Source of the DNA: Candidatus Omnitrophota bacterium
Lineage (GTDB): Bacteria; Omnitrophota; Gorgyraeia; B26-G9
Assembly (NCBI GenBank): GCA_043806135.1
Contig: JAZDHG010000031.1
Location: 1,110 to 65,109 of the forward strand
DNA: 64,000 bases
Direction: 5' to 3'
This document shows positions 14,083 to 58,320 of this stretch, piece after piece. The notes beneath the pieces are model-generated. The model was not told where the DNA came from, did no database searches, and saw only the letters and a program-made list of their open reading frames with translations. Position 1 is the stretch's first letter, and every line of letters starts with the position of its first letter. The position numbers and the translations under genes are program-made.

Positions 14083-14200
14083 AGTAATGGGAAAAGAGTA
14101 AACTTTTAAAAGCATAGTTGACTAATAGTTAATTGTTTGGTAAACTTTGAGGCTCGTAATTATATAGAAAATATTCCGCCAAAAGGCGGTCTCATAAAAT

Positions 14201-14287
14201 GCAGCGGGACAGGCGGGATTTAATTCGGCCATATTATTTACATCATTATATTCTGTAAATAATGGCCTCATTAAAGGAGGAGAAAAC
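14201..14287 (+). ncRNA. Conserved 5'-leader element, copy 1 (upstream of rpmE)
   Basis: The core GCGGGATTTAATTCG is followed by a 13-bp hairpin GGCCAT(AT)TATTTAC…GTAAATAATGGCC, then CTCATTAAAGGAGG and the ATG. The other copies are at 19325-19491 and 31820-31991. Confidence 0.45.
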
Positions 14288-14485
14288 ATGAAAGAGAAGA
14301 TCCATCCGGAGTATAAAAAAACTACAATAACCTGTGCTTGCGGAGAAGTAATGCAGATATCCAGCACAAGAGAAAATATCAGAGTTGAAATTTGTAGTAA
14401 TTGCCATCCTTTTTATACCGGAAAACAGAAACTCGTTGATACGGCCGGCCGTGTAGAACGTTTCAAAAAGAGATATGCAAGATAA
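14288..14485 (+). CDS. rpmE: 50S ribosomal protein L31
   Basis: MKEKIHPEY…CACG…[10 protein letters not shown] is the zinc-ribbon L31. Confidence 0.95.
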
Positions 14486-19018: not shown

Positions 19019-19303
19019 GTGGCAGTTATTATCCGTTTAGCAAGACTTGGCGCAAAAAGGAAACCGCATCACAAAATTGTGGTAATTGAACAGCATAGAC
19101 CCAGAGATGGAAGGTTTATTGAAGAGATTGGATATTATGATCCTTCAAAAAATCCAGCTTTAGTAGAAGTTAAGGAAGACAGGGCAATGTATTGGATTAG
19201 TGTCGGGGCAAAACCAACACCTACAGTGAAAAGTATCTTTAAGAATAAAAAAATTCCGCTTAAAATAAAGCGAAGACAAGACTTAAAGAGCAAAGAGAAT
19301 TAA
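19019..19303 (+). CDS. rpsP: 30S ribosomal protein S16
   Basis: A GTG start follows the RBS GGAGGTGA, giving (M)AVIIRLARLGAKRKP… which is the S16 N-terminus. The ORF-track start at 18980 is too early. Confidence 0.85.
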   Translation: MAVIIRLARLGAKRKPHHKIVVIEQHRPRDGRFIEEIGYYDPSKNPALVEVKEDRAMYWISVGAKPTPTVKSIFKNKKIPLKIKRRQDLKSKEN

Positions 19304-19324
19304 GTCTGATATTGAGCTTTACCT

Positions 19325-19491
19325 CGCCCTCTGCGCGATGTGTAGAGGTTTAGATGGAGGAGGATGGTATTAATAGTAAAAAGTAGAACCTGGCCAGGGA
19401 ATAGATTAGAGAGCGGGATTCAATTCGCGTGTACAATTTAAAAAAAATATTATTTCATAAATTGTGCGCTCACGGGAAAAGGAGGTAAGTC
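19325..19491 (+). ncRNA. Conserved 5'-leader element, copy 2 (upstream of lipoprotein/trmD operon)
   Basis: It begins with CCCTCTGCGCGATGTGTAGAGG. The core CAGGGAATAGATTAGAGAGCGGGATTCAATTCGCG follows, then a hairpin GCGTGTACAATTT…AAATTGTGCGC, then GGAAAAGGAGG and the ATG. Confidence 0.45.
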
Positions 19492-20520: not shown

Positions 20521-20547
20521 TTAATGGTAGATCCCTTGCTTAAACAA

Positions 20548-20616
20548 AGGGGAAATTTTATTTTATAATTTCCCCTTAAGCTGCGGGATAAATTCTCCCG
20601 CCGAAGTGCGGCGGGA
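20548..20616 (+). terminator. Two stem-loops between trmD and rplS (AGGGGAAATT…AATTTCCCCT; TCCCGCCG-aagtg-CGGCGGGA)
   Basis: The inverted repeats are read directly. The second hairpin abuts the rplS RBS and may be an L19-leader-type structure. Confidence 0.4.
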
Positions 20617-20633
20617 TCATTAAGGAGGAAATA

Positions 20634-30008: not shown

Positions 30009-31766
30009 ATGGCGACAAAAGGAAGGGTTATTGCTGTTGTCTCTAATCTAGTAACAATAGAAGTGGACGGACCAGTCAGTCAAAATGAGATCTGCTATAT
30101 AGATTTAGACGGTATAAAACTTAAGGCAGAGGTAATTAAAATTAACGGAAACCGTGCCTCTGCACAGGTCTTTGAAAGTACGCGGGGACTTCGTTTCGGC
30201 TGTAGTGCAGAATTTACAGAGCATATGCTTGAGGTTGAACTCGGGCCCGGCCTTCTTTCGAAAAAATATGACGGCCTGCAAAATGATCTCGAAGCAATGA
30301 ACGGGGTATTTTTAAAAAGAGGAGAATTAACAGCGAGATTTTCTTATGAACAAAAATGGGATTTTGTTCCGATAGCCAAAGTGAACGATAGGGTTAAAGC
30401 AGGAGATTTCCTCGGCGAGGTCAATGAAAACTGGGTTAAACATAAAATTATGGTGCCTTTTGCTCTGGAAGGTCTATGGCAGATAGAATCAATTGCCAAA
30501 AAAGGCTCATATACGGTAAAAGATACCATTGCCGTGTTAAAGGACAAAGACGGAAAGAAACAGAATGTCAGCATGATGCAGCGCTGGCCGGTAAAAGTAC
30601 CGGTTCGTGCCTATGCGGATAAGCCGATAGCTTATAAATTGCTTCAGACAGGGGTAAGGCTTATTGACACGCTAAACCCTATAGTAGAAGGAGGTACAGG
30701 ATTTATTCCCGGACCTTTTGGTTGCGGCAAAACAGTTTTGCAGCATATTATTGCCGCTAATGCCCAGGTTGATATGGTAATTATCTGCGCTTGCGGAGAA
30801 AGAGCGAATGAGGTAGTGGAGATATTTAAGGAATATCCGGAGCTTGAAGATCCGTTTACCGGACGCAAACTTATTGAACGCACGATTATTATTTGCAATA
30901 CTTCCAATATGCCCGTAGCTGCACGAGAGGCCTCTGTTTATACAGCAATGACAATCGCCGAATATTACCGTCAGATGGGTTTAAAGATATTACTGCTTGC
31001 CGATTCTACATCCCGTTGGGCTCAGGCACTCAGAGAGATGTCCAACCGAATGGAAGAATTGCCGGGCCCGGACGCTTTCCCCATGGATTTGACGGCGATT
31101 GTGGCTAATTTTTATTCAAGAGCAGGCCTGGTTGAGCTCTCTAACGGACAGACAGGGTCGGTAACCTTTATCGGAACGGTTTCTCCTGCGGGAGGGAATT
31201 TTAAAGAGCCGGTGACCGAATCCACCAAGAAAGTAGCCCGTTGTTTTTATGCTCTTTCCCAGAAGCGCGCCGATAGCAAAAGATATCCTTCGATAGATAC
31301 AATAGAAAGTTATTCAAAATACCTTGAATATAAAGAAGTGCAGGAATACATGGCGGAAAATCTGGAACCGCATTGGATAGAAAAGATTTTGTACATACGC
31401 GATGTCTTGCTCAGGGGAAAAGAGTCATATGACCGGATAAATATTTTGGGCGATGACAGCGTGCCTGTTGAATATCACGAGCGTTACTGGAAATCTGAAC
31501 TGATTGACTTTGGATTTCTGCAGCAGGATGCTTTTGACGAGGTTGATAAGGCAACGCCTATGGATAGGCAAAAATACATGATGGATATTATATACAATAT
31601 ATGCAAAGCAGACTTCAAATTTGAAAATTTTGACGGAGTCGCTGATTACTTTAAAAAAATCATAAATTTAATAAAACAGATGAACTATTCTAAATTTCAG
31701 GAAGAAGAATTTAAGAAGTTTGAAGACGAACTGCAAAGTGTCTTGATGGAACGAAAGGTCAATTGA
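30009..31766 (+). CDS. atpA: V/A-type ATPase catalytic subunit A
   Basis: The Walker A motif is GPFGCGKTV. The product is 585 aa and has the non-homologous region typical of A subunits. Confidence 0.95.
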   Translation: MATKGRVIAVVSNLVTIEVDGPVSQNEICYIDLDGIKLKAEVIKINGNRASAQVFESTRGLRFGCSAEFTEHMLEVELGPGLLSKKYDGLQNDLEAMNGVFLKRGELTARFSYEQKWDFVPIAKVNDRVKAGDFLGEVNENWVKHKIMVPFALEGLWQIESIAKKGSYTVKDTIAVLKDKDGKKQNVSMMQRWPVKVPVRAYADKPIAYKLLQTGVRLIDTLNPIVEGGTGFIPGPFGCGKTVLQHIIAANAQVDMVIICACGERANEVVEIFKEYPELEDPFTGRKLIERTIIICNTSNMPVAAREASVYTAMTIAEYYRQMGLKILLLADSTSRWAQALREMSNRMEELPGPDAFPMDLTAIVANFYSRAGLVELSNGQTGSVTFIGTVSPAGGNFKEPVTESTKKVARCFYALSQKRADSKRYPSIDTIESYSKYLEYKEVQEYMAENLEPHWIEKILYIRDVLLRGKESYDRINILGDDSVPVEYHERYWKSELIDFGFLQQDAFDEVDKATPMDRQKYMMDIIYNICKADFKFENFDGVADYFKKIINLIKQMNYSKFQEEEFKKFEDELQSVLMERKVN

Positions 31767-31819
31767 TGACTGAACTTATGGAGCGTAAGAGGACATAAGT
31801 TCACAGTCAGAGAATGACC

Positions 31820-31991
31820 CAGCCCTCTGTGCAGATAGAGGAAAGATATTTAAAAAAGAAAGATAATAGCAATAACTAGCCCTCACAGGGTTGATCAGGG
31901 AATAGCTTAGAGGGCTGGATTTAATTCGCGCATATCATTTAACTTCACAATGTTCGCTAAATAATGCGCTCATTAAAGAAAGGAAAATATC
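31820..31991 (+). ncRNA. Conserved 5'-leader element, copy 3 (in the 225-nt spacer between atpA and atpB)
   Basis: It begins with CCCTCTGTGCAGATAGAGG. The core CAGGGAATAGCTTAGAGGGCTGGATTTAATTCGCG follows, then a hairpin GCGCATATCATTTA…TAAATAATGCGC, then CTCATTAAAGAAAGG and the ATG. Confidence 0.45.
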
Positions 31992-33368: not shown

Positions 33369-33511
33369 AGGACGAGAGACGATCGTTTGAGTTGTTCACT
33401 ATGATGAAAGACGAAAAGACGTAAAGCGAATTAAATTTGCGAGTTGCGCGTCAGCGAGTTTGCGTGTTGGAAAATAGAAAAACTGAGAAAATTTTTATAT
33501 TGATTTTTTGA

Positions 33512-33558
33512 AGTAACTTTTAGTAACCAATAGTAACTGTTTGTAACTGCTGGTAACC
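33512..33558 (+). promoter_or_regulatory. Five GTAAC pentamers at exact 10-bp period upstream of atpD
   Basis: Read directly: agtaacttttagtaaccaatagtaactgtttgtaactgctggtaacc. The 17-mer TAGTAACTGTTTGTAAC is shared with 58275. Confidence 0.5.
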
Positions 33559-33583
33559 GAAGAATAATAACTAGGGATGAAAC

Positions 33584-37812: not shown

Positions 37813-37879
37813 TACTTTTTAATATAATTCATATTTGACAATTTATTTTTTAGGTGTATTCTAATAATTGAGGATATAT

Positions 37880-38217
37880 TATGCATTGTCCAAAGTTTAT
37901 TGATTTTACAAGGGAATGCCAGTATAAAATAGGATTTCTGCCTTTAGACACTCGCCACTTTTGCTCTACCCGCAAATACAAAAAAGTGCCCGTTTTATAT
38001 AGCCATTCATAATGTCGGATATTTTTGCAAATATCTTAAACTCTGTCCAGCCTTTGAGCATTTTAAAACGGAAAATTTCGATAAATTTGTGCAAATAGCA
38101 AACGAATACTGCCTTTCTGAAAAGAACAATGTGCGTTGTTCAAGATTTAAGCTAAGAACTGCAGGGAAAAATCCGCCTGCGAAATTAATGCCGGATGGAA
38201 GTGTTTTGGAAAAATAA
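37880..38217 (+). pseudogene. Cys-rich small ORF(s) with three CP(K/F/A)F-type repeats, split by a frameshift at an A6 run (about 37965); intact length would be ~112 aa
   Basis: Frame 1 reads MHCPKFIDFTRECQY…KKVPVLYSHS*. Removing one A from the A6 run continues it as …KKCPFYIAIHNVGYFCKYLKLCPAFEHF…GSVLEK*. Confidence 0.3.
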
Positions 38218-38244
38218 ACAGTTAGTTAAATATAAAGGAGGGAT

Positions 38245-38358
38245 ATGATGAGTTGGATATTGTTCGGTCAGATCGTCTTGTTGATGGTAATATATTCTTT
38301 TATTAAACAACTGGTTAAGTGTATGCATGATACAAAATGTAAAATCTGTAAAAAATAA
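38245..38358 (+). CDS. Small membrane peptide with C-terminal Cys-rich tail (37 aa)
   Basis: An RBS GGAGGG sits 5 nt before the ATG. The product is MMSWILFGQIVLLMVIYSFIKQLVKCMHDTKCKICKK. Confidence 0.3.
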   Translation: MMSWILFGQIVLLMVIYSFIKQLVKCMHDTKCKICKK

Positions 38359-38389
38359 TTTAAAAGGGAAATCGAACGTCTTTCGCATC

Positions 38390-38600
38390 TTCCGCTAGCC
38401 CTTGTAAAACAGCTCAGAACTAGAACAAGTTCAGTCCAGAGCTGCATAGTACCGATCTATGATTTGGTTCTATGCAGGGCCGTGCTCAGATGTCTCACTC
38501 CCTAAGGGGAAACCCTTATGGCGTGAGCCACGTTGTGGCAACGCCACTCACGTGGTTTTCCCCTTCCCTATCTAAAGACGATAAGCTTTCTGAGTGCTTG
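38390..38600. ncRNA. GC-rich highly structured segment of unknown class (nested inverted repeats), adjacent to tRNA-Glu
   Basis: Three hairpins are visible. The first is CTGCATAG…CTATGCAG. The second is GGGGAAACCC…CGTGAGCCACG. The third is GTGGCAACGCCAC, nested within CACGTGGTTTTCCCC. No long ORF is present, and GC content is much higher than in flanking DNA. Confidence 0.3.
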
Positions 38601-38738
38601 GGATTAATTTGATAACGAATTTATATTCACACTATTCCATAAATTCTATCTCATTATTAATATTCCTCTTTTGGTTCGAACCCCAGGAAGAGCTATCAGA
38701 AAATAAAAAGGCCACTCTATCGAGTGGCTTTTTATAGT

Positions 38739-38816
38739 TGGTACCCCCAAGGGGATTCGAACCCCTGTTTTATGGCTGAGAACCACATGTCCTGGACCGG
38801 GCTAGACGATGAGGGC
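38739..38816 (-). tRNA. tRNA-Glu (anticodon CUC), with encoded CCA
   Basis: The reverse complement is GCCCTCATCGTCTAGCCCGGTCCAGGACATGTGGTTCTCAGCCATAAAACAGGGGTTCGAATCCCCTTGGGGGTACCA. This is collinear with E. coli tRNA-Glu (TCGTCTAG…CAGGAC…GGGGTTCGAATCCCC). The anticodon loop TTCTCAG gives CTC. Confidence 0.85.
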
Positions 38817-38958
38817 AAAAGTTTATGCTTTGGAAATTATATCATAATTTATTTTAAAGTCAATGCTTCTATGTCATTCTATGTAACATTTTGAGCAATG
38901 CTGAATATGTTACTGAATAGGTTACATTGGTTATAAATACTTCCTCCTAAGGCGAATA

Positions 38959-39072
38959 TTAAAAATTCCGCCACTCCCGCGCTGTGATCAATCCCTTGTC
39001 CGGCGTTATTCCAAAGATCGCAAATACAATTGCCAGCAGCAGGTCCATAATTCCGCTGACAATATTGACCAT
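38959..39072 (-). CDS. Possible 37-aa small membrane peptide
   Basis: An AGGA sits 6 nt before the ATG. The product is MVNIVSGIMDLLLAIVFAIFGITPDKGLITAREWRNF. No other support was found. Confidence 0.15.
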   Translation of the reverse strand: MVNIVSGIMDLLLAIVFAIFGITPDKGLITAREWRNF

Positions 39073-39179
39073 GGTGTCCTAACGAAATTACGCAAGAGAA
39101 TGCCTTTGTTTTAAAACAGTAAATAATTTTGGTATAGGCATATTGTTACTTTTATTAAAAAAATGGATTGCTGTTAATG

Positions 39180-39260
39180 CTCAGTAATTAGGTAACGTTT
39201 TTGGGTTATAGTTACGATGCCGTTTCGTTTTTCGGTTACGGTAATTGTAAAAACAAAAAT
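39180..39260 (+). promoter_or_regulatory. GTAA(C/T)/GTTAC-rich array upstream of the DUF2079 gene
   Basis: Read directly: cagtaattaggtaacgtttttgggttatagttacgatgccgtttcgtttttcggttacggtaattgtaaaa. Confidence 0.3.
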
Positions 39261-39475
39261 ATTTAATAAGTCCTCTGTTGACATGCTAAATATTTTTGAA
39301 GAACTTAACCATAGCCGAAAGACGATACGGGGTTCGTTACCTTTGCCGTTATCGAACTATTGAGCTAGTACACCTGGTTTTTTTAATATTTGGCAAAAGT
39401 TTCTTTATATTATAGTTTTAGACTTTTTACTTTTTCCTTCGTAATCTTTATCTTAGATGCTATAATACTGCTCAA

Positions 39476-44943: not shown

Positions 44944-44994
44944 TTTTAATCTGTGAAATCAGGTTCTTGCTGTTATTCTAAACAAGAAAGAACC
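44944..44994 (+). repeat. 52-nt dispersed hairpin repeat, copy A (upstream of purB)
   Basis: Read directly: ttttaatctgtgaaatcaggttcttgctgttattctaaacaagaaagaacc. The stem is GGTTCTT/AAGAACC with a variable loop. The flank cgaatctgtgtaatcctg at 44927-44943 is also shared with copy B. Confidence 0.6.
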
Positions 44995-45090
44995 AAAAAA
45001 CCCGCCCAAAACCGGATTATAAAAGGTTTGACGTAACCTGAATAATTTGATATTATTAAGTATTCCTGAACTATATAGAGAGGTGGAACT

Positions 45091-54583: not shown

Positions 54584-54635
54584 TTTTTAATCGGTGAAAT
54601 CAGGTTCTTTTATTCCATTTAAACAAGAAAGAACC
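54584..54635 (+). repeat. 52-nt dispersed hairpin repeat, copy B (immediately upstream of purE RBS)
   Basis: Read directly: tttttaatcggtgaaatcaggttcttttattccatttaaacaagaaagaacc. The upstream flank cagtgtaagctgg at 54571 is also shared with copy A. Confidence 0.6.
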
Positions 54636-54662
54636 TTAAAGTTAAGGAGGATATCAGAAATT

Positions 54663-55151
54663 ATGGTAAAGAATATAAAAGTTGCAATAATGATGGGAAG
54701 TAAATTCGATCTGGATACAGTGCAGGAAACAATAAATGTGTTAAAAGAGCTCAATGTGTCTCATGAAGTAAAGGTTCTTTCTGCGCACCGCACGCCGAAG
54801 GATGTTGTTGTCTATGTAGAAGGGCTTTCGAAAAGGGGAACACAGGTTGTAATCGCTGCAGCCGGCATGGCGGCTGCTTTGGCCGGGACTGTTGCTGCAC
54901 ATACTGTTTTGCCGGTTATCGGTATCCCTATAGAAACAAGCACGCTTAAAGGGCTTGACAGCCTGCTTTCCACCGTTCAAATGCCAAAAGGAATTCCTGT
55001 TGCCTGTATGGCTATCGGAAAGCATGGGGCGCAGAATGCGGCGATCCTTGCCTGTCAGATCCTGGCATTGCAGGATGATAAGCTGCGTAAAAAAATGCTT
55101 AAGTTTAAGGAGAAAATGGCAAAGGCCATAAGAAAAATAAAGATCAGTTAA
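54663..55151 (+). CDS. purE: N5-carboxyaminoimidazole ribonucleotide mutase
   Basis: VAIMMGSKFDL is the PurE N-terminal motif, and AAGMAAALAGTVAAHTVLPVIGIP is also present. An RBS AAGGAGGA precedes the ATG at 54663. The ORF-track start at 54594 would read through the repeat. Confidence 0.9.
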   Translation: MVKNIKVAIMMGSKFDLDTVQETINVLKELNVSHEVKVLSAHRTPKDVVVYVEGLSKRGTQVVIAAAGMAAALAGTVAAHTVLPVIGIPIETSTLKGLDSLLSTVQMPKGIPVACMAIGKHGAQNAAILACQILALQDDKLRKKMLKFKEKMAKAIRKIKIS

Positions 55152-55153
55152 AC

Positions 55154-56209
55154 ATGAAAGATACAAAGATATTCAAGATAAACTCTGAAAATCCCGACAT
55201 AGATAAGATAAAAGAGGCGGCATTAATATTAAAAACAGGCGGGCTGGTGGCTTTTCCGACAGAAACAGTTTATGGATTGGCTGCTTTGCCTTATGATATA
55301 GCTGTGGAAAAACTGCGTTATATAAAAAATAGATATGAAGTGAAGCAATTTTCCTTTTGTATCCACAGCATTGAACAGGCCGAACATCTTGCAGGGTATA
55401 TCTCACCCTTTGCCTATAAGCTTATGAATAAATTCTGGCCGGGACCGCTGACATTGGTATTGGATAACCGGCAGGGAGAAACTGTGGGATTGAGAATCCC
55501 GGATCATCCGGTAGCACTGCTATTTTTAAAAGAAATCGGCGAGCCTGTTTTTGCTCCGTCTGCCAATTTTGCCGGGGAAAAAGCCCCGGTTAATGCTCAG
55601 GAGGTATTAAAGGCTTTAGATAAAAAAATTGATGCTTTGATTGATTCAGGAGAGTCAAAGGTTAAGGTCTCTTCTACGGTATGTAAGGTTACTGATGATA
55701 GTTTTGAGATACTCAGGCCGGGGGCGATAACTAAGGCCATGATCGAGCAGGTTTTAAAAATGAAAGAAGTGCTTTTTGTCTGTACGGGAAACAGCTGCCG
55801 CAGCGCAATGGCTGAGGGACTGATGAAAAAAATAGTTAAAGGCTCTGTAAATATCCATATCAGCTCAGCCGGGGTGGCCGCATATGAGGGAATGCCGGCC
55901 TCACAGGAAGCTATTCTTGTTATGCAAAAATTAGGCGTAGATATATCCGAGCATAAAGCAAGGAGAGTAACTGATGAGATGCTGAAGCAGGCGGATTTTA
56001 TCCTGGTTATGGAGCAGGGGCATACACAGTATATCTTGAAGCAACGAAGCGAATTAAGCAAAAGGGTTTTTCTTTTAAAAGAGTTCTCTGTAGATCAGTC
56101 CGGAGGGCTGTCGATCGGGGATCCGATAGGCATGAGTATTGGTTTTTATGAAAAGGTGGCTGATGAATTGCAGAAATCAATAGAAGGGCTGGTGGCAAAA
56201 ATAAAATGA
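55154..56209 (+). CDS. Fusion: threonylcarbamoyl-AMP synthase TsaC/YrdC domain + low-molecular-weight phosphotyrosine/arginine phosphatase (YwlE-like)
   Basis: The N-terminal YrdC fold shows LKTGGLVAFPTETVYGLAA. The C-terminal LMW-PTP P-loop is VLFVCTGNSCRSAMAEG. Confidence 0.8.
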   Translation: MKDTKIFKINSENPDIDKIKEAALILKTGGLVAFPTETVYGLAALPYDIAVEKLRYIKNRYEVKQFSFCIHSIEQAEHLAGYISPFAYKLMNKFWPGPLTLVLDNRQGETVGLRIPDHPVALLFLKEIGEPVFAPSANFAGEKAPVNAQEVLKALDKKIDALIDSGESKVKVSSTVCKVTDDSFEILRPGAITKAMIEQVLKMKEVLFVCTGNSCRSAMAEGLMKKIVKGSVNIHISSAGVAAYEGMPASQEAILVMQKLGVDISEHKARRVTDEMLKQADFILVMEQGHTQYILKQRSELSKRVFLLKEFSVDQSGGLSIGDPIGMSIGFYEKVADELQKSIEGLVAKIK

Positions 56210-56634
56210 AAATAGCTATGGGAAGTGATCATAGAGGGATTGACCTTAAAAAGTCTTTGATTTTATATCTTCAAAAAAACGGACATCAGGTTGAAGATTT
56301 CGGCGCCTATAGCACGGAATCCTGTGACTATCCTCAAATCGCTTTAAAAGTCGCTCGCGCGGTAGCGAAAAAAAAAGTGGAAAGGGGAATACTTATCTGC
56401 GGCAGCGGGCTGGGTATGACCATGGCCGCCGGCACGGTAAGAGGAGTAAGAGCGGCAAACTGCCTTAACCTTTCACTCGCTCGGTTTTCGCGTGAACATA
56501 ATGATGCGAATGTTTTGGTTATCGGGGCAATGTATGTGGGAGGAAATTTGGCTAAAAGGATAGCAGGCAAATGGTTGAAAACCTCTTTTTTAGGCGGCAG
56601 ACATGAACGCCGAGTAAAAATGTTTTCTAAGTGA
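56206..56634 (+). CDS. rpiB: Ribose-5-phosphate isomerase B
   Basis: MKIAMGSDHRGIDLK…ICGSGLGMTMAAG is the RpiB/LacAB family signature. Confidence 0.85.
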   Translation: MKIAMGSDHRGIDLKKSLILYLQKNGHQVEDFGAYSTESCDYPQIALKVARAVAKKKVERGILICGSGLGMTMAAGTVRGVRAANCLNLSLARFSREHNDANVLVIGAMYVGGNLAKRIAGKWLKTSFLGGRHERRVKMFSK

Positions 56635-56638
56635 GATT

Positions 56639-56876
56639 ACAACTTACGGAACGAAGTGAACGTAAGTTGTAAAATCGAACTTATCCCGAACCTGATGAGT
56701 AAAAATTTAGTATAAATTTTTGCGAAAGTTTTAGAGGTTCGGGGAAAGTGAATATAAAGTTATAATACGGAACGAAGTGAACGTAAGTTGTAAAATCGAA
56801 CTTATCCCGAACCTATGAGTAAAAAATAAAAAAATTTTTACGAAAGTATTAAAAGGGCGGGAATAACGGAGCAGGA
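56639..56876 (+). repeat. Tandem direct repeat, 2 x ~119 nt, upstream of glyA; each unit has internal stem-loops and a CUGAUGAG-stem-CGAAA-like core (intact only in unit 1)
   Basis: Unit 1 spans 56639-56757 and unit 2 spans 56758-56876. They share the ~58-nt core tacggaacgaagtgaacgtaagttgtaaaatcgaacttatcccgaacct(g)atgagtaaaaa…cgaaag. Confidence 0.6.
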
Positions 56877-56963
56877 AATCTTGTAATAAATTTGGATATG
56901 GCCTAAAGGCCTATAATTTATGCCGGGCATAAATTATCTACTCATTGAGGAGGAAAATAATAA

Positions 56964-58202
56964 ATGAGTGAGTTAAAAAAAACTGATATTGCAATATATA
57001 ACGCGATTAAAAAAGAATTAAAAAGACAGAGAGAGCATATAGAATTAATTGCCAGTGAGAATTTTACCTCACGCGCGGTTATGGAAGCGCAGAGTTCTGT
57101 TCTTACCAATAAATATGCCGAAGGATATCCGGGAGCCCGCTGGTACGGAGGCTGTGAACATGTTGACGTTGCCGAACAATTGGCGATCGATAGGGCAAAG
57201 GAGATATTTCAGGCCGAGCACGCAAATGTTCAGCCGCATTCAGGAGCTCAGGCGAATATGGCCGTGTTTATGAGCTGTCTTAAAGCAGGGGATAAAGTGC
57301 TTGCCTTGGATCTTGCCTGCGGAGGACATCTGTCGCATGGCCATCCTAAAAATTTTTCCGGTTTATTTTATGACGTAAAATTTTACCAGGTTAATCGCCG
57401 GACTGAACAGCTTGATTATGATGAAATTTCCTCTTTAGCAAAGAAACACAAACCCCGGCTTATTCTTGCCGGCGCTTCTGCGTATCCGAGATTTATCGAT
57501 TTTAAAAAATTCCGTAAAATTTGCGATAGCGTCGGAGCATATCTGATGGTCGATATGGCGCACATTGCCGGGCTTGTTGCCGCAGGCGTGCATCCCTCTC
57601 CTGTGCCTTATGCTGAGTTTGTAACGACCACAACGCACAAAACACTGCGCGGACCAAGAGGAGGCTTGATACTTTGCCGCAAGGAATTTGCCAAGAGTAT
57701 TGATTTAAATGTTTTTCCGGGTACTCAAGGCGGACCGCTTATGCATGTTATTGCTGCTAAGGCGGTGGCTTTGAAAGAAGCTTTAATGCCTGGTTTCAAA
57801 AAGTACCAGATACAAGTAGCTTCGAACGCAAAAGAACTGGCTGGTGCATTAAAGAAAAGAGGATTCCGTATTGTCGCCGGTGGCACGGATACGCATTTAA
57901 TGCTTGTCGACTTAACAAACAGAGATATCACAGGAAAAGAAGCGCAAATAGCTTTAGGTGAAGTGAATGTTACGATCAATAAAAATCTTATTCCTTTTGA
58001 TAAAAAATCGCCGTTTTTGACCAGCGGTATAAGATTGGGAACTCCGGCTGTGACTACAAGAGGAATGAAGGAAAAACAAATGCATGTTATTGCTGACATT
58101 ATTGATCAAATTCTACAAAAAGATCAGACTATTACAAAGGAAAAACAGCGTGAAATGAAAAGCCACGTGCGGCTTTTAACGCAAAAGTTTCCCTTATATT
58201 GA
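56964..58202 (+). CDS. glyA: Serine hydroxymethyltransferase
   Basis: The PLP-Lys region is [15 protein letters not shown]. The product is 412 aa. Confidence 0.95.
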
Positions 58203-58207
58203 AAAAC

Positions 58208-58307
58208 AGTTACTAAGGGTTACTAAAAAGTTAATAAAGGTTATAATGATTAAAGGTTTTTTAGTTTTGGAGTAACTGATAGTAACTGTTTGTAACCAAT
58301 GGTAACA
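58208..58307 (+). promoter_or_regulatory. GTTAC array (4x, 10-bp period) followed by GTAAC array (4x, 10-bp period) upstream of the dCMP deaminase gene
   Basis: The first array reads cagttactaagggttactaaaaagttaataaaggttataa. The second reads agtaactgatagtaactgtttgtaaccaatggtaaca. Confidence 0.5.
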
Positions 58308-58320
58308 GGATTAAAATATT

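Follow-up and report, generated by a model that had tools for sequence, protein, structure and literature searches.

The DNA analysed here, referred to as the window, is a stretch of 64,000 nucleotides from a Candidatus Omnitrophota bacterium (contig JAZDHG010000031.1). It carries the operon purD-purE-sua5/ptp-rpiB-glyA-dcd-nrdR, in which the stop codon of rpiB (TGA, 56632-34) and the start codon of glyA (ATG, 56964) are separated by a spacer of 329 nt. This spacer contains a tandem direct repeat that an initial annotation had described as a hammerhead-like element in a glyA upstream region of about 330 nt, a length that agrees with the measured one. The subject of this work is the repeat and the hairpin modules of which it is built, which also adjoin unrelated genes in the window and in related genomes.

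The tandem repeat between rpiB and glyA

The repeat is placed by Tandem Repeats Finder at 56645-56888, with a period of 121, 2.0 copies, 81% matches and a score of 321. The tandem arrangement reported initially is therefore real, with a period of 121 nt rather than about 119 nt. The repeat search shows that 56645-56693 and 56766-56814 are identical at 49/49 positions at an offset of 121 nt, and outside this block the two units share about 75% identity and differ by small indels. A separate, independent assembly of the same strain (L007, positions 1-41; Logan SRR27925880) ends inside unit 2, which is consistent with the repeat breaking short-read assemblies.

The whole glyA leader is strongly structured (z -6.8). 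Unit 1 folds at -41.5 kcal/mol (z -7.33), a value equalled by 0/200 shuffles. Its predicted fold comprises a 12-bp hairpin at the 5' side (ACAACTTACG, 56639-48, ... CGTAAGTTGT) and a stem CCCGAACC/GGUUCGGG that encloses CUGAUGAG, an A/U hairpin and CGAAAG, in the order described initially. Unit 2 is partly decayed, with a 2-nt deletion and substitutions in the 5' hairpin arm. It lacks part of this arm, most of the outer stem, whose 3' strand reads GGGCGGG instead of GGUUCGGG, and the G of CUGAUGAG, so that it reads CUAUGAG, as had been noticed. Folded alone, unit 2 is no better than its shuffles (z -0.10). The strong 5' hairpin and the complementary outer stem that had been ascribed to both units are thus features of unit 1.

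Each unit starts with a long hairpin module (u1a and u2a), followed by a second stem domain. In u1a, the left foot TAAGTGAG (56628-35) includes the rpiB stop codon, and the following parts are the stem ACAACUUACG/CGUAAGUUGU, the apical loop GAACGAAGUGAA and the right foot CGAACUUA. The outer stem of the second domain of unit 1, named stem I in the initial annotation, encloses a short module (u1b). A remnant module, u3, adjoins glyA at the right end of the spacer. On the minus strand it comprises CCTCCTCAATGAG, GTAG, a hairpin (56913-56937) and a GGCC hairpin (56900-11), and on the plus strand it gives CTCATTGAGGAGG (56941-53), which is the Shine-Dalgarno (SD) sequence of glyA. The u3 module is homologous to the right flank of the insertion site in the sister genome (L001) and in the closest relative (L010), and its layout, hairpin-CTCATTAAAGGAGG-ATG, matches that of the copies at 14212-76, 19412-78 and 31913-78. 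The covariance model R2, introduced below, gives no match to u3, which marks it as degenerate; u3 and some of the short modules were assigned by eye.

A family of hairpin modules at gene junctions

A common building block was recognised from weak matches, elsewhere in the window, to an initial covariance model built on the whole unit. R2, the model of this module, was run on the 64-kb window, with filters off, and on about 250 kb from related loci. It identified eight significant modules in the window and one short variant (20581-20625, minus strand). Beyond glyA, the R2 modules lie in four intergenic regions, namely three operon spacers and a region downstream of a tRNA gene, and the short variant is found in a fifth (Table 1). 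All the modules of the window are intergenic or overlap gene ends, and all the open reading frames (ORFs) of at least 90 aa kept after overlap filtering are on the plus strand. The initial annotation had held that many copies elsewhere would speak for a mobile satellite and against a ribozyme, and many copies were found. The notion of a satellite-type repeat was essentially right in that this is a repeat element; the copies form a diverged family of structured palindromes, not identical satellite units.

Table 1. Positions of the hairpin modules and related features in the window
Feature	Position	Strand	Evidence and remarks
Module u1a	56626-56691	+	Hairpin of ~66 nt; R2 78.7 bits, E 1e-15; predicted fold
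Unit 1, domain 2	56685-56743	+	Outer stem CCCGAACC (56685-92)/GGUUCGGG (56736-43); minimum free energy (MFE) fold
Module u1b	56692-99; 56699-56723; 56723-28	+	CUGAUGAG; A/U hairpin; CGAAAG
Module u2a, second tandem copy	56753-56812	+	R2 33.4 bits, E 4e-5; 5' arm and left foot decayed
Unit 2, domain 2	56806-56861	+	Pairwise alignments; weak fold, z -1.9; CCCGAACC 56806-13, CUAUGAG 56813-19, A/U hairpin 56819-41, CGAAAG 56841-46, degenerate strand GGGCGGG 56855-61
Module u3, remnant adjoining glyA	56890-56953	-	Sequence, by eye only
Module upstream of rpmE	14212-14276	-	R2 77.5 bits; adjoins rpmE SD
Module, rpsP-ORF19492 spacer	19265-19328	+	R2 E 1e-5
Module, rpsP-ORF19492 spacer	19412-19478	-	R2 E 5.5e-11; inverted partner
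Inverted pair, rpsP-ORF19492 spacer	19265-19478
Short GC-hairpin variant and domain 2	20521-20625	-	Sequence and fold; fills trmD-rplS spacer
Module, atpA-atpB spacer	31758-31824	+	R2 E 6e-5; TGA of foot (31764-66) is the atpA stop codon
Module, atpA-atpB spacer	31913-31978	-	R2 E 5e-16; adjoins atpB SD
Full-element reference, V-ATPase atpA-atpB spacer	31758-31978		Arms joined by CCAGCCCTCT/AGAGGGCTGG (predicted fold)
Module downstream of tRNA gene	38596-38659	-	R2 53 bits, E 1e-9; ~80 nt downstream of minus-strand tRNA gene

A blastn search of the insert against the window returned nothing significant; the family is too diverged for a sequence search and a covariance model is needed. Searches of phages and plasmids by blastn had no matches, and scans of viral contigs gave chance matches in coding sequences only. 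Scans for GA-hairpin-GA and for left/right motifs with a hairpin were discarded as unspecific, since they gave 16 and 10 matches, respectively, where shuffles gave about 11 and about 7, and neither GAAYTTATCC nor CTCATTAAAGGAGG, searched with mismatches, is enriched as a single motif.

The modules share one common architecture and most of the copies measure 64-67 nt (about 66 nt). From base to tip, a module consists of an outer helix of 5-6 bp (TTAATGAG with CGAATTAA), a 2x2 tandem G.A internal loop, a helix of 4-6 bp, a 2-nt bulge on the 3' side, a helix of 8-10 bp, a second G.A(A) loop, 2 bp and a triloop. Pairing between the two feet surrounds the 2x2 loop, and on the G.A strand the consensus is (T)TAATGAG-[hairpin]-CGAAyTwATCCC. 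The MFE structures predicted by RNAfold show the 2x2 GA/GA loop in 5/6 copies. The short GC type is TCCCGCCG-CACTT-CGGCGGGA, and a possible second short module in tandem, noticed by eye at about 14160-14199, was kept out of the alignment of the feet for want of a 3' foot.

The pairing is corroborated by covariation. In a plain MAFFT alignment of nine modules from four genomes, 91.1% of the cells are paired versus 74.1% in shuffles (0/500), 11/21 pairs show double changes, and the covariation score is 0.48 against at most 0.08 with slid partners. The feet were aligned separately in 17 modules, including u1b, u2b and the L001 u1b, with the apical parts replaced by a fixed spacer. The pair beside the G.A loop is U-A in 17/17 modules, and the next pair covaries (A-U in 10, G-C in 4). 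The terminal tag (A/G)TGAG is present in 14 of the 17 aligned feet, the remaining three reading TGAT or TGAA, and a true GTAG occurs at three places: in u3, at the right end of the rplS copy and in the distant L022. Among the known motifs considered, K-turns and C/D-boxes were rejected on inspection for the lack of a 3-nt bulge in the aligned feet, ACGGA as a CsrA site because L001 has ACCGA, and attC because the core sites do not fit.

The placement of the modules follows a common layout. In the rpsP-orf, atpA-atpB and rpiB-glyA spacers, a plus-strand module extends from the end of the upstream gene and the foot of a minus-strand module lies against the downstream SD, so that on the sense strand the latter reads hairpin-CTCATTAAAGGAGG-ATG. 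Such inverted pairs are found at these three places in the window and in the rpsP-orf spacer of L020, which belongs to the same genome as L001. The genes rpiB and atpA and the L020 rpsP all have the UGA of the plus-module foot as their stop codon. The R2 copies in the relatives belong to L001, L020, L016 and L022. In L020 a further module lies upstream of rpsP. The distant L016 contains an inverted pair between divergent genes and, adjoining an SD, a copy that has exactly the stem of u1a at glyA, ACAACTTACG...GTGAACGTAAGTTGT, and L022 contains one module, also adjoining an SD. At two places in L016 (5727-5780 and 19238-19292) the loops of ACAACTTACG-type hairpins hold extra inserted hairpins (for example TCCC...GGGA), which suggests nested insertions within modules.

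The presence of the elements varies between related genomes, as judged from relatives of GlyA, Sua5/PTP and TrmD compared together with their flanking DNA. The glyA operon is kept in 15 Omnitrophota loci. The rpiB-glyA spacer measures 329 nt in the window, 307 nt in L001 and 55 nt in L010, and 11-42 nt in the 12 other loci, which reach down to 41% Sua5 identity. The insert of about 300 nt is therefore confined to the window and L001, where the two versions are homologous over the full length with 83% identity. In L001 the first stem of unit 1 changes from ACAACUUACG/CGUAAGUUGU to ACAACUUACC/GGUAAAUUGU in a compensatory manner. The outer stem changes from CCCGAACC/GGUUCGGG to CCCUGGGC/GUUCAGGG, which by eye alters both strands of three pairs and a single strand of one more. 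The diverged second unit of L001 keeps the apical loop GAACGAAGUGAA intact though the stem has changed. The presence of this second unit indicates that the duplication is older than the split between the window and L001, and the 49 identical nucleotides in the window point to a later homogenisation of the repeat. At the same site L010 has only TAAATGA-TCCCGCCGCACTTCGGCGGGA-GAATTTATC, next to which lies the right flank that it shares, ...TCATTGAGGAGG...ATG.

Other junctions behave in the same manner. The trmD-rplS spacer is 113 nt in the window, 10 nt in L020 and 57 nt in L021, and the genes overlap in L022; the rpsP-orf spacer is 188 nt in the window, 219 nt in L020, 0 nt in L021 and 5 nt in L022. 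A 34-mer, ATGATCCCGCCGCACTTCGGCGGGAGAATTTATC, is identical between the rpiB-glyA site of L010 (plus strand) and the rplS site of the window (minus strand). Taken together, the spacer lengths and the shared 34-mer indicate that, within the time since these close relatives diverged, elements have been gained, lost or exchanged between sites that are not orthologous. Terminal inverted repeats were recognised by eye in the rplS copy, as TTAATG(GTAG)ATCCC ... GGGATCTACCATTAA, and at glyA, as CTAAGTGAGAT ... ATCTACTCATTGAG, with whole modules inverted at both ends. TTAA flanks the rplS copy and the glyA copies have TCTA(A) at either end; these two motifs also belong to the conserved ends.

Nature of the elements and alternative explanations

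The best-supported reading of these data is a previously undescribed family of palindromic intercistronic elements resembling the repetitive extragenic palindromes (REPs) and REPINs or the MITEs (miniature inverted-repeat transposable elements). The rpiB-glyA spacer is probably a cluster of such lineage-restricted, dispersed intergenic repeats of the REP/REPIN/BIME or MITE kind, with the left arm duplicated in tandem. A complete element would replace the whole intercistronic spacer by a plus module, a centre and an inverted module. The plus module would start at the stop of the upstream gene and usually provide the stop codon through the UGA of its foot, and the foot of the inverted module would adjoin the downstream SD. 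At glyA, the left arm (u1a and the second stem domain enclosing u1b) appears to have been duplicated head to tail, part of the duplicate may have been homogenised recently, and the right arm (u3) would be degenerate and still provide the SD. The elements presumably spread by transposition or recombination. They would be transcribed together with the operon, and any action of theirs would be that of stable RNA hairpins that punctuate the polycistronic mRNA as processing or stability barriers, keeping the stop and SD signals.

The likeness to REPs is extensive. REPs form inverted doublets 20-100 bp apart with the tags outside, cluster by tandem reiteration of units plus flanking DNA, comprise subfamilies with compensatory stem changes and, in some stems, unpaired GA, and have been reported in the PVC (Planctomycetes-Verrucomicrobia-Chlamydiae) relatives Planctomycetes and Opitutus (PMC3733652, PMC3116915). 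The Omnitrophota modules are likewise imperfect palindromes of extragenic DNA, which carry a short conserved tag at the foot and show compensatory changes in the stem. They share the inverted doublets, which can be folded into a larger hairpin, the head-to-tail clusters that include flanking DNA, the variable presence between related genomes and the location, mostly downstream of coding regions inside operons; the unpaired GA recalls that of some REP families. They differ from REPs in length, about 66 nt versus 20-40 nt, only the short GC variant being REP-sized, and in the tag, which is (A/G)TGAG and partly paired as a tandem G.A loop, with GTAG in three copies. A second G.A loop with a conserved apical mini-hairpin, a foot that coincides with the upstream stop codon and an opposite foot that adjoins the downstream SD are further differences.

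The comparison with MITEs of the Correia (CREE), ERIC and BOX types leads to a similar picture. These are elements of 100-150 nt with terminal inverted repeats, intergenic or intercistronic and co-transcribed, which form long hairpins and are polymorphic in insertion between strains; they can be cut or protected by RNase III and can alter the expression of neighbours (PMC2649163, PMC2229807, PMC3049150). The Correia elements show that RNase III can bind or cut such co-transcribed hairpins and that the expression of neighbouring genes can change (PMC2649163). The BOX elements are also alike in their modular tandem sub-repeats. On the other hand, the Omnitrophota element has no clear target-site duplication and no sequence similarity to these families, and each of its terminal repeats is itself a long structured hairpin.

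Several observations weigh against the assignment to REP- or MITE-like elements. No transposase (RAYT, IS200/IS605 or DDE) was seen among the ORFs of the window, of which the identified ones are housekeeping genes and none was compared with protein-family libraries. Clear target-site duplications are lacking, the modules exceed the 20-40 bp of classical REPs and the tag departs from GTAG in all but three copies. The copy count refers to the 64-kb window rather than to the whole genome. Narrow pattern scans of genome and metagenome collections revealed no further glyA-type units: CGAACTTATCCC-N5-9-ATGAGTAAA had 0 matches in these collections, in which the genome of the window is evidently not included, and a looser three-block pattern gave one GC-rich chance match. 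The wobble pairs (8 G.U versus 5 A.C) do not discriminate the strands, so that folding at the RNA level and at the DNA level cannot be told apart from them. Finally, the fixed stop-side and SD-side placement in the three inverted-pair spacers, as well as the non-canonical features kept across distant genomes, could reflect a selected host function.

Such a function is the core of the main rival explanation, which is rather unlikely in our judgement. The double-G.A hairpin would be a host-selected signal for operon punctuation, which a conserved protein, perhaps an RNA-binding protein or a double-strand endonuclease of an RNase III-like or other type, would recognise. This protein would process or stabilise the cistrons and adjust downstream translation, and the glyA array would be an amplified version uncoupling glyA-dcd-nrdRD from purD-rpiB. 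The two tandem G.A loops, the 2-nt bulge and the triloop are indeed kept through divergence, with covariation, and the apical loop survives in unit 2 of L001. The placement is fixed: the upstream module carries the stop codon in its foot, and the downstream module has its foot 3-6 nt away from the SD. The orientation of the modules tracks the gene direction even between the divergent genes of L016, and the module is present in the distant L016 and L022. However, the elements are missing from the same junctions of close relatives, where the spacers are 10-25 nt, and the minus-strand modules put the U.C/C.U version of the loop, not the G.A version, into the mRNA. The identical 34-mer at non-orthologous sites, in opposite orientation and in different genomes, argues in the same direction, and no candidate binding protein was identified. 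In a wider form, which is also doubtful, the double-G.A hairpin would be a conserved protein-recognised module across the Omnitrophota, serving either as mRNA punctuation with its own stop and SD or as the hairpin recognised by an undescribed system of single-strand transposition that specifically colonises stop/SD junctions. If so, the glyA array would be an amplified instance that rewires the expression of the glyA-dcd-nrdRD half of the operon. Much less probable is that the elements are promoter cassettes. Transcription of the downstream gene would then be driven by a conserved GGGATTTAATTCG or by the TATAAT at 56912-17, with the hairpin as a protective structure at the 5' end. The minus-strand modules are always just upstream of an SD, the TATAAT is kept in L001, and Correia elements are known to create promoters (PMC2649163). 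Nevertheless, a sigma-70 scan found no promoter within the insert, the plus-strand u1 and u2 would face away from glyA, and at rpmE a conserved promoter, TTGACT-N14-TGGTAAACT, lies upstream of the modules.

The structured leader and the ribozyme-like element, named initially beside the satellite-type repeat, fare worse still. That the tandem units form a leader specific to glyA, as a tandem riboswitch or an attenuator that would sense a metabolite of the one-carbon or folate-related kind, is very improbable and already largely refuted by the distribution. The units do lie directly upstream of glyA, the leader is strongly structured, and between the window and L001 the stems covary and the junction nucleotides are kept. 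However, the insert is absent from 12/15 glyA loci of the same operon, the same module family flanks rplS, rpmE, the V-ATPase gene (atpB), rpsP and a tRNA, the pairing of unit 2 is lost, and no Rfam riboswitch matched at E<=10 or at gathering thresholds. No terminator-like expression platform was found on the plus strand of 56200-57200; the MFE fold shows a weak CUCAUU/AAUGAG pairing around the glyA SD. The least probable explanation, with hardly any likelihood left, is that unit 1 is a degenerate or unconventional self-cleaving ribozyme of the hammerhead type, perhaps acting in a dimeric transcript like the satellite hammerheads. Unit 1 has CUGAUGAG-hairpin-CGAAA beside an 8-bp helix at the place of stem I, and the units are in tandem, as in satellite transcripts. 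The Rfam scan proposed with the initial annotation gave, for 56400-57100 at E<=10, seven weak unrelated matches and no hammerhead or other ribozyme family; the whole window at gathering thresholds contains a single tRNA, and the atpA-atpB element has no match in Rfam. Only 8 nt (GUUUUAGA, 56728-35) separate GAAA from the stem-I strand, with no hairpin in the sequence or in the folds, which leaves no room for stem III, in agreement with the initial difficulty in placing stem III and a cleavage site. A56735 and G56736 precede GUUCGGG at the positions equivalent to 16.1 and 17, so that the would-be cleavage nucleotide N17 is G. A hammerhead with G17 is not known to be cleaved. The full CUGAUGAG core (56692-56727 with GAAA) is confined to unit 1, and both unit 2 and the L001 ortholog read CUAUGAG, without G5; the G that completes the core is thus a peculiarity of unit 1. 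At the core position the other copies of the family read UUAAUGAG or UAAGUGAG in the alignment of the feet, and CTGATGA-N12-40-GAAA occurs in the window at chance frequency (2 found versus 1.6 expected). The hammerhead was hence rejected for the lack of a three-way junction, G at N17, a variable G5 and no covariance-model match.

The resemblance to the hammerhead (Rfam types I/II/III, HH9 and HH10) has a simple origin. In the hammerhead, U7-G8-A9 and G12-A13-A14 extend a hairpin by tandem G.A pairs, and this UGA-stem-GAA is the domain-2 part of the core. The glyA motif, in contrast, is the generic foot of the repeat family: it is one more foot (u1b), nested within the second stem, and unit 1 happens to spell the full CUGAUGA...GAAA beside an 8-bp helix. 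The string CUGAUGAG-stem-CGAAA is therefore the generic UGAG-hairpin-CGAA foot of the family with one extra G, not a catalytic core.

A false ribozyme or riboswitch lead is thereby removed, and the case illustrates how a hammerhead-like string can arise, since the UGA-stem-GAA foot with tandem G.A is common to many hairpins. The REP- or MITE-like family has no match in Rfam, literature searches on Omnitrophica with REP or hammerhead found none either, and it belongs to a poorly studied candidate phylum. Its traits are unusual: a long covarying hairpin with two G.A loops, an exact span from stop to SD and turnover between close relatives. The elements may be of use as strain markers, may cause assembly breaks and are candidates for post-transcriptional operon punctuation.

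Neighbouring features

Upstream of rpmE, the motif TTGACT-N14-TGGTAAACT is a sigma-70-like promoter with an extended -10, kept in three genomes (window 14083-14290, plus strand; L020 2492-2889; L021 2917-3054), whereas L022 has TGGTATAAT instead. The modules between this promoter and the rpmE SD lie consequently in the 5' untranslated region. The region around the tRNA-associated module (37813-39475) extends over 1.66 kb without any ORF of at least 90 aa. It contains the minus-strand tRNA (38742-38816), the module and strong GC hairpins at about 38500-38570, and no Rfam family apart from the tRNA was found in it.

The glyA-dcd spacer measures 118 nt in the window versus 21-42 nt in L001-L004, and that of L010 is similar to the window (127 nt). 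Copies of GTAAC are phased at a spacing of 10-11 nt, with four copies at 58271-58309 and five at 33511-33560; the regions with such arrays are 58201-58318 and 33511-33560 in the window and 12775-12895 in L010. In the glyA-dcd spacer, inverted GTTAC/GTTAA copies precede the GTAAC array. The arrays resemble a phased, putatively protein-binding array upstream of dcd-nrdR-nrdD and of a V-ATPase gene.

A separate intergenic repeat of 56 nt is found at 54585-54640 and 44944-44999, the two copies being 80% identical and composed of TTTTAATCKGTGAAATCA and the hairpin GGTTCTT...AAGAACC. One copy widens the purD-purE spacer to 100 nt, versus 23 nt in L001 and L002. In the adjacent purE, the mechanically called ORF (54594-55151) starts with GTG at 54594, and the relatives place the real start at ATG 54663 (MVKNIK..., 162 aa).

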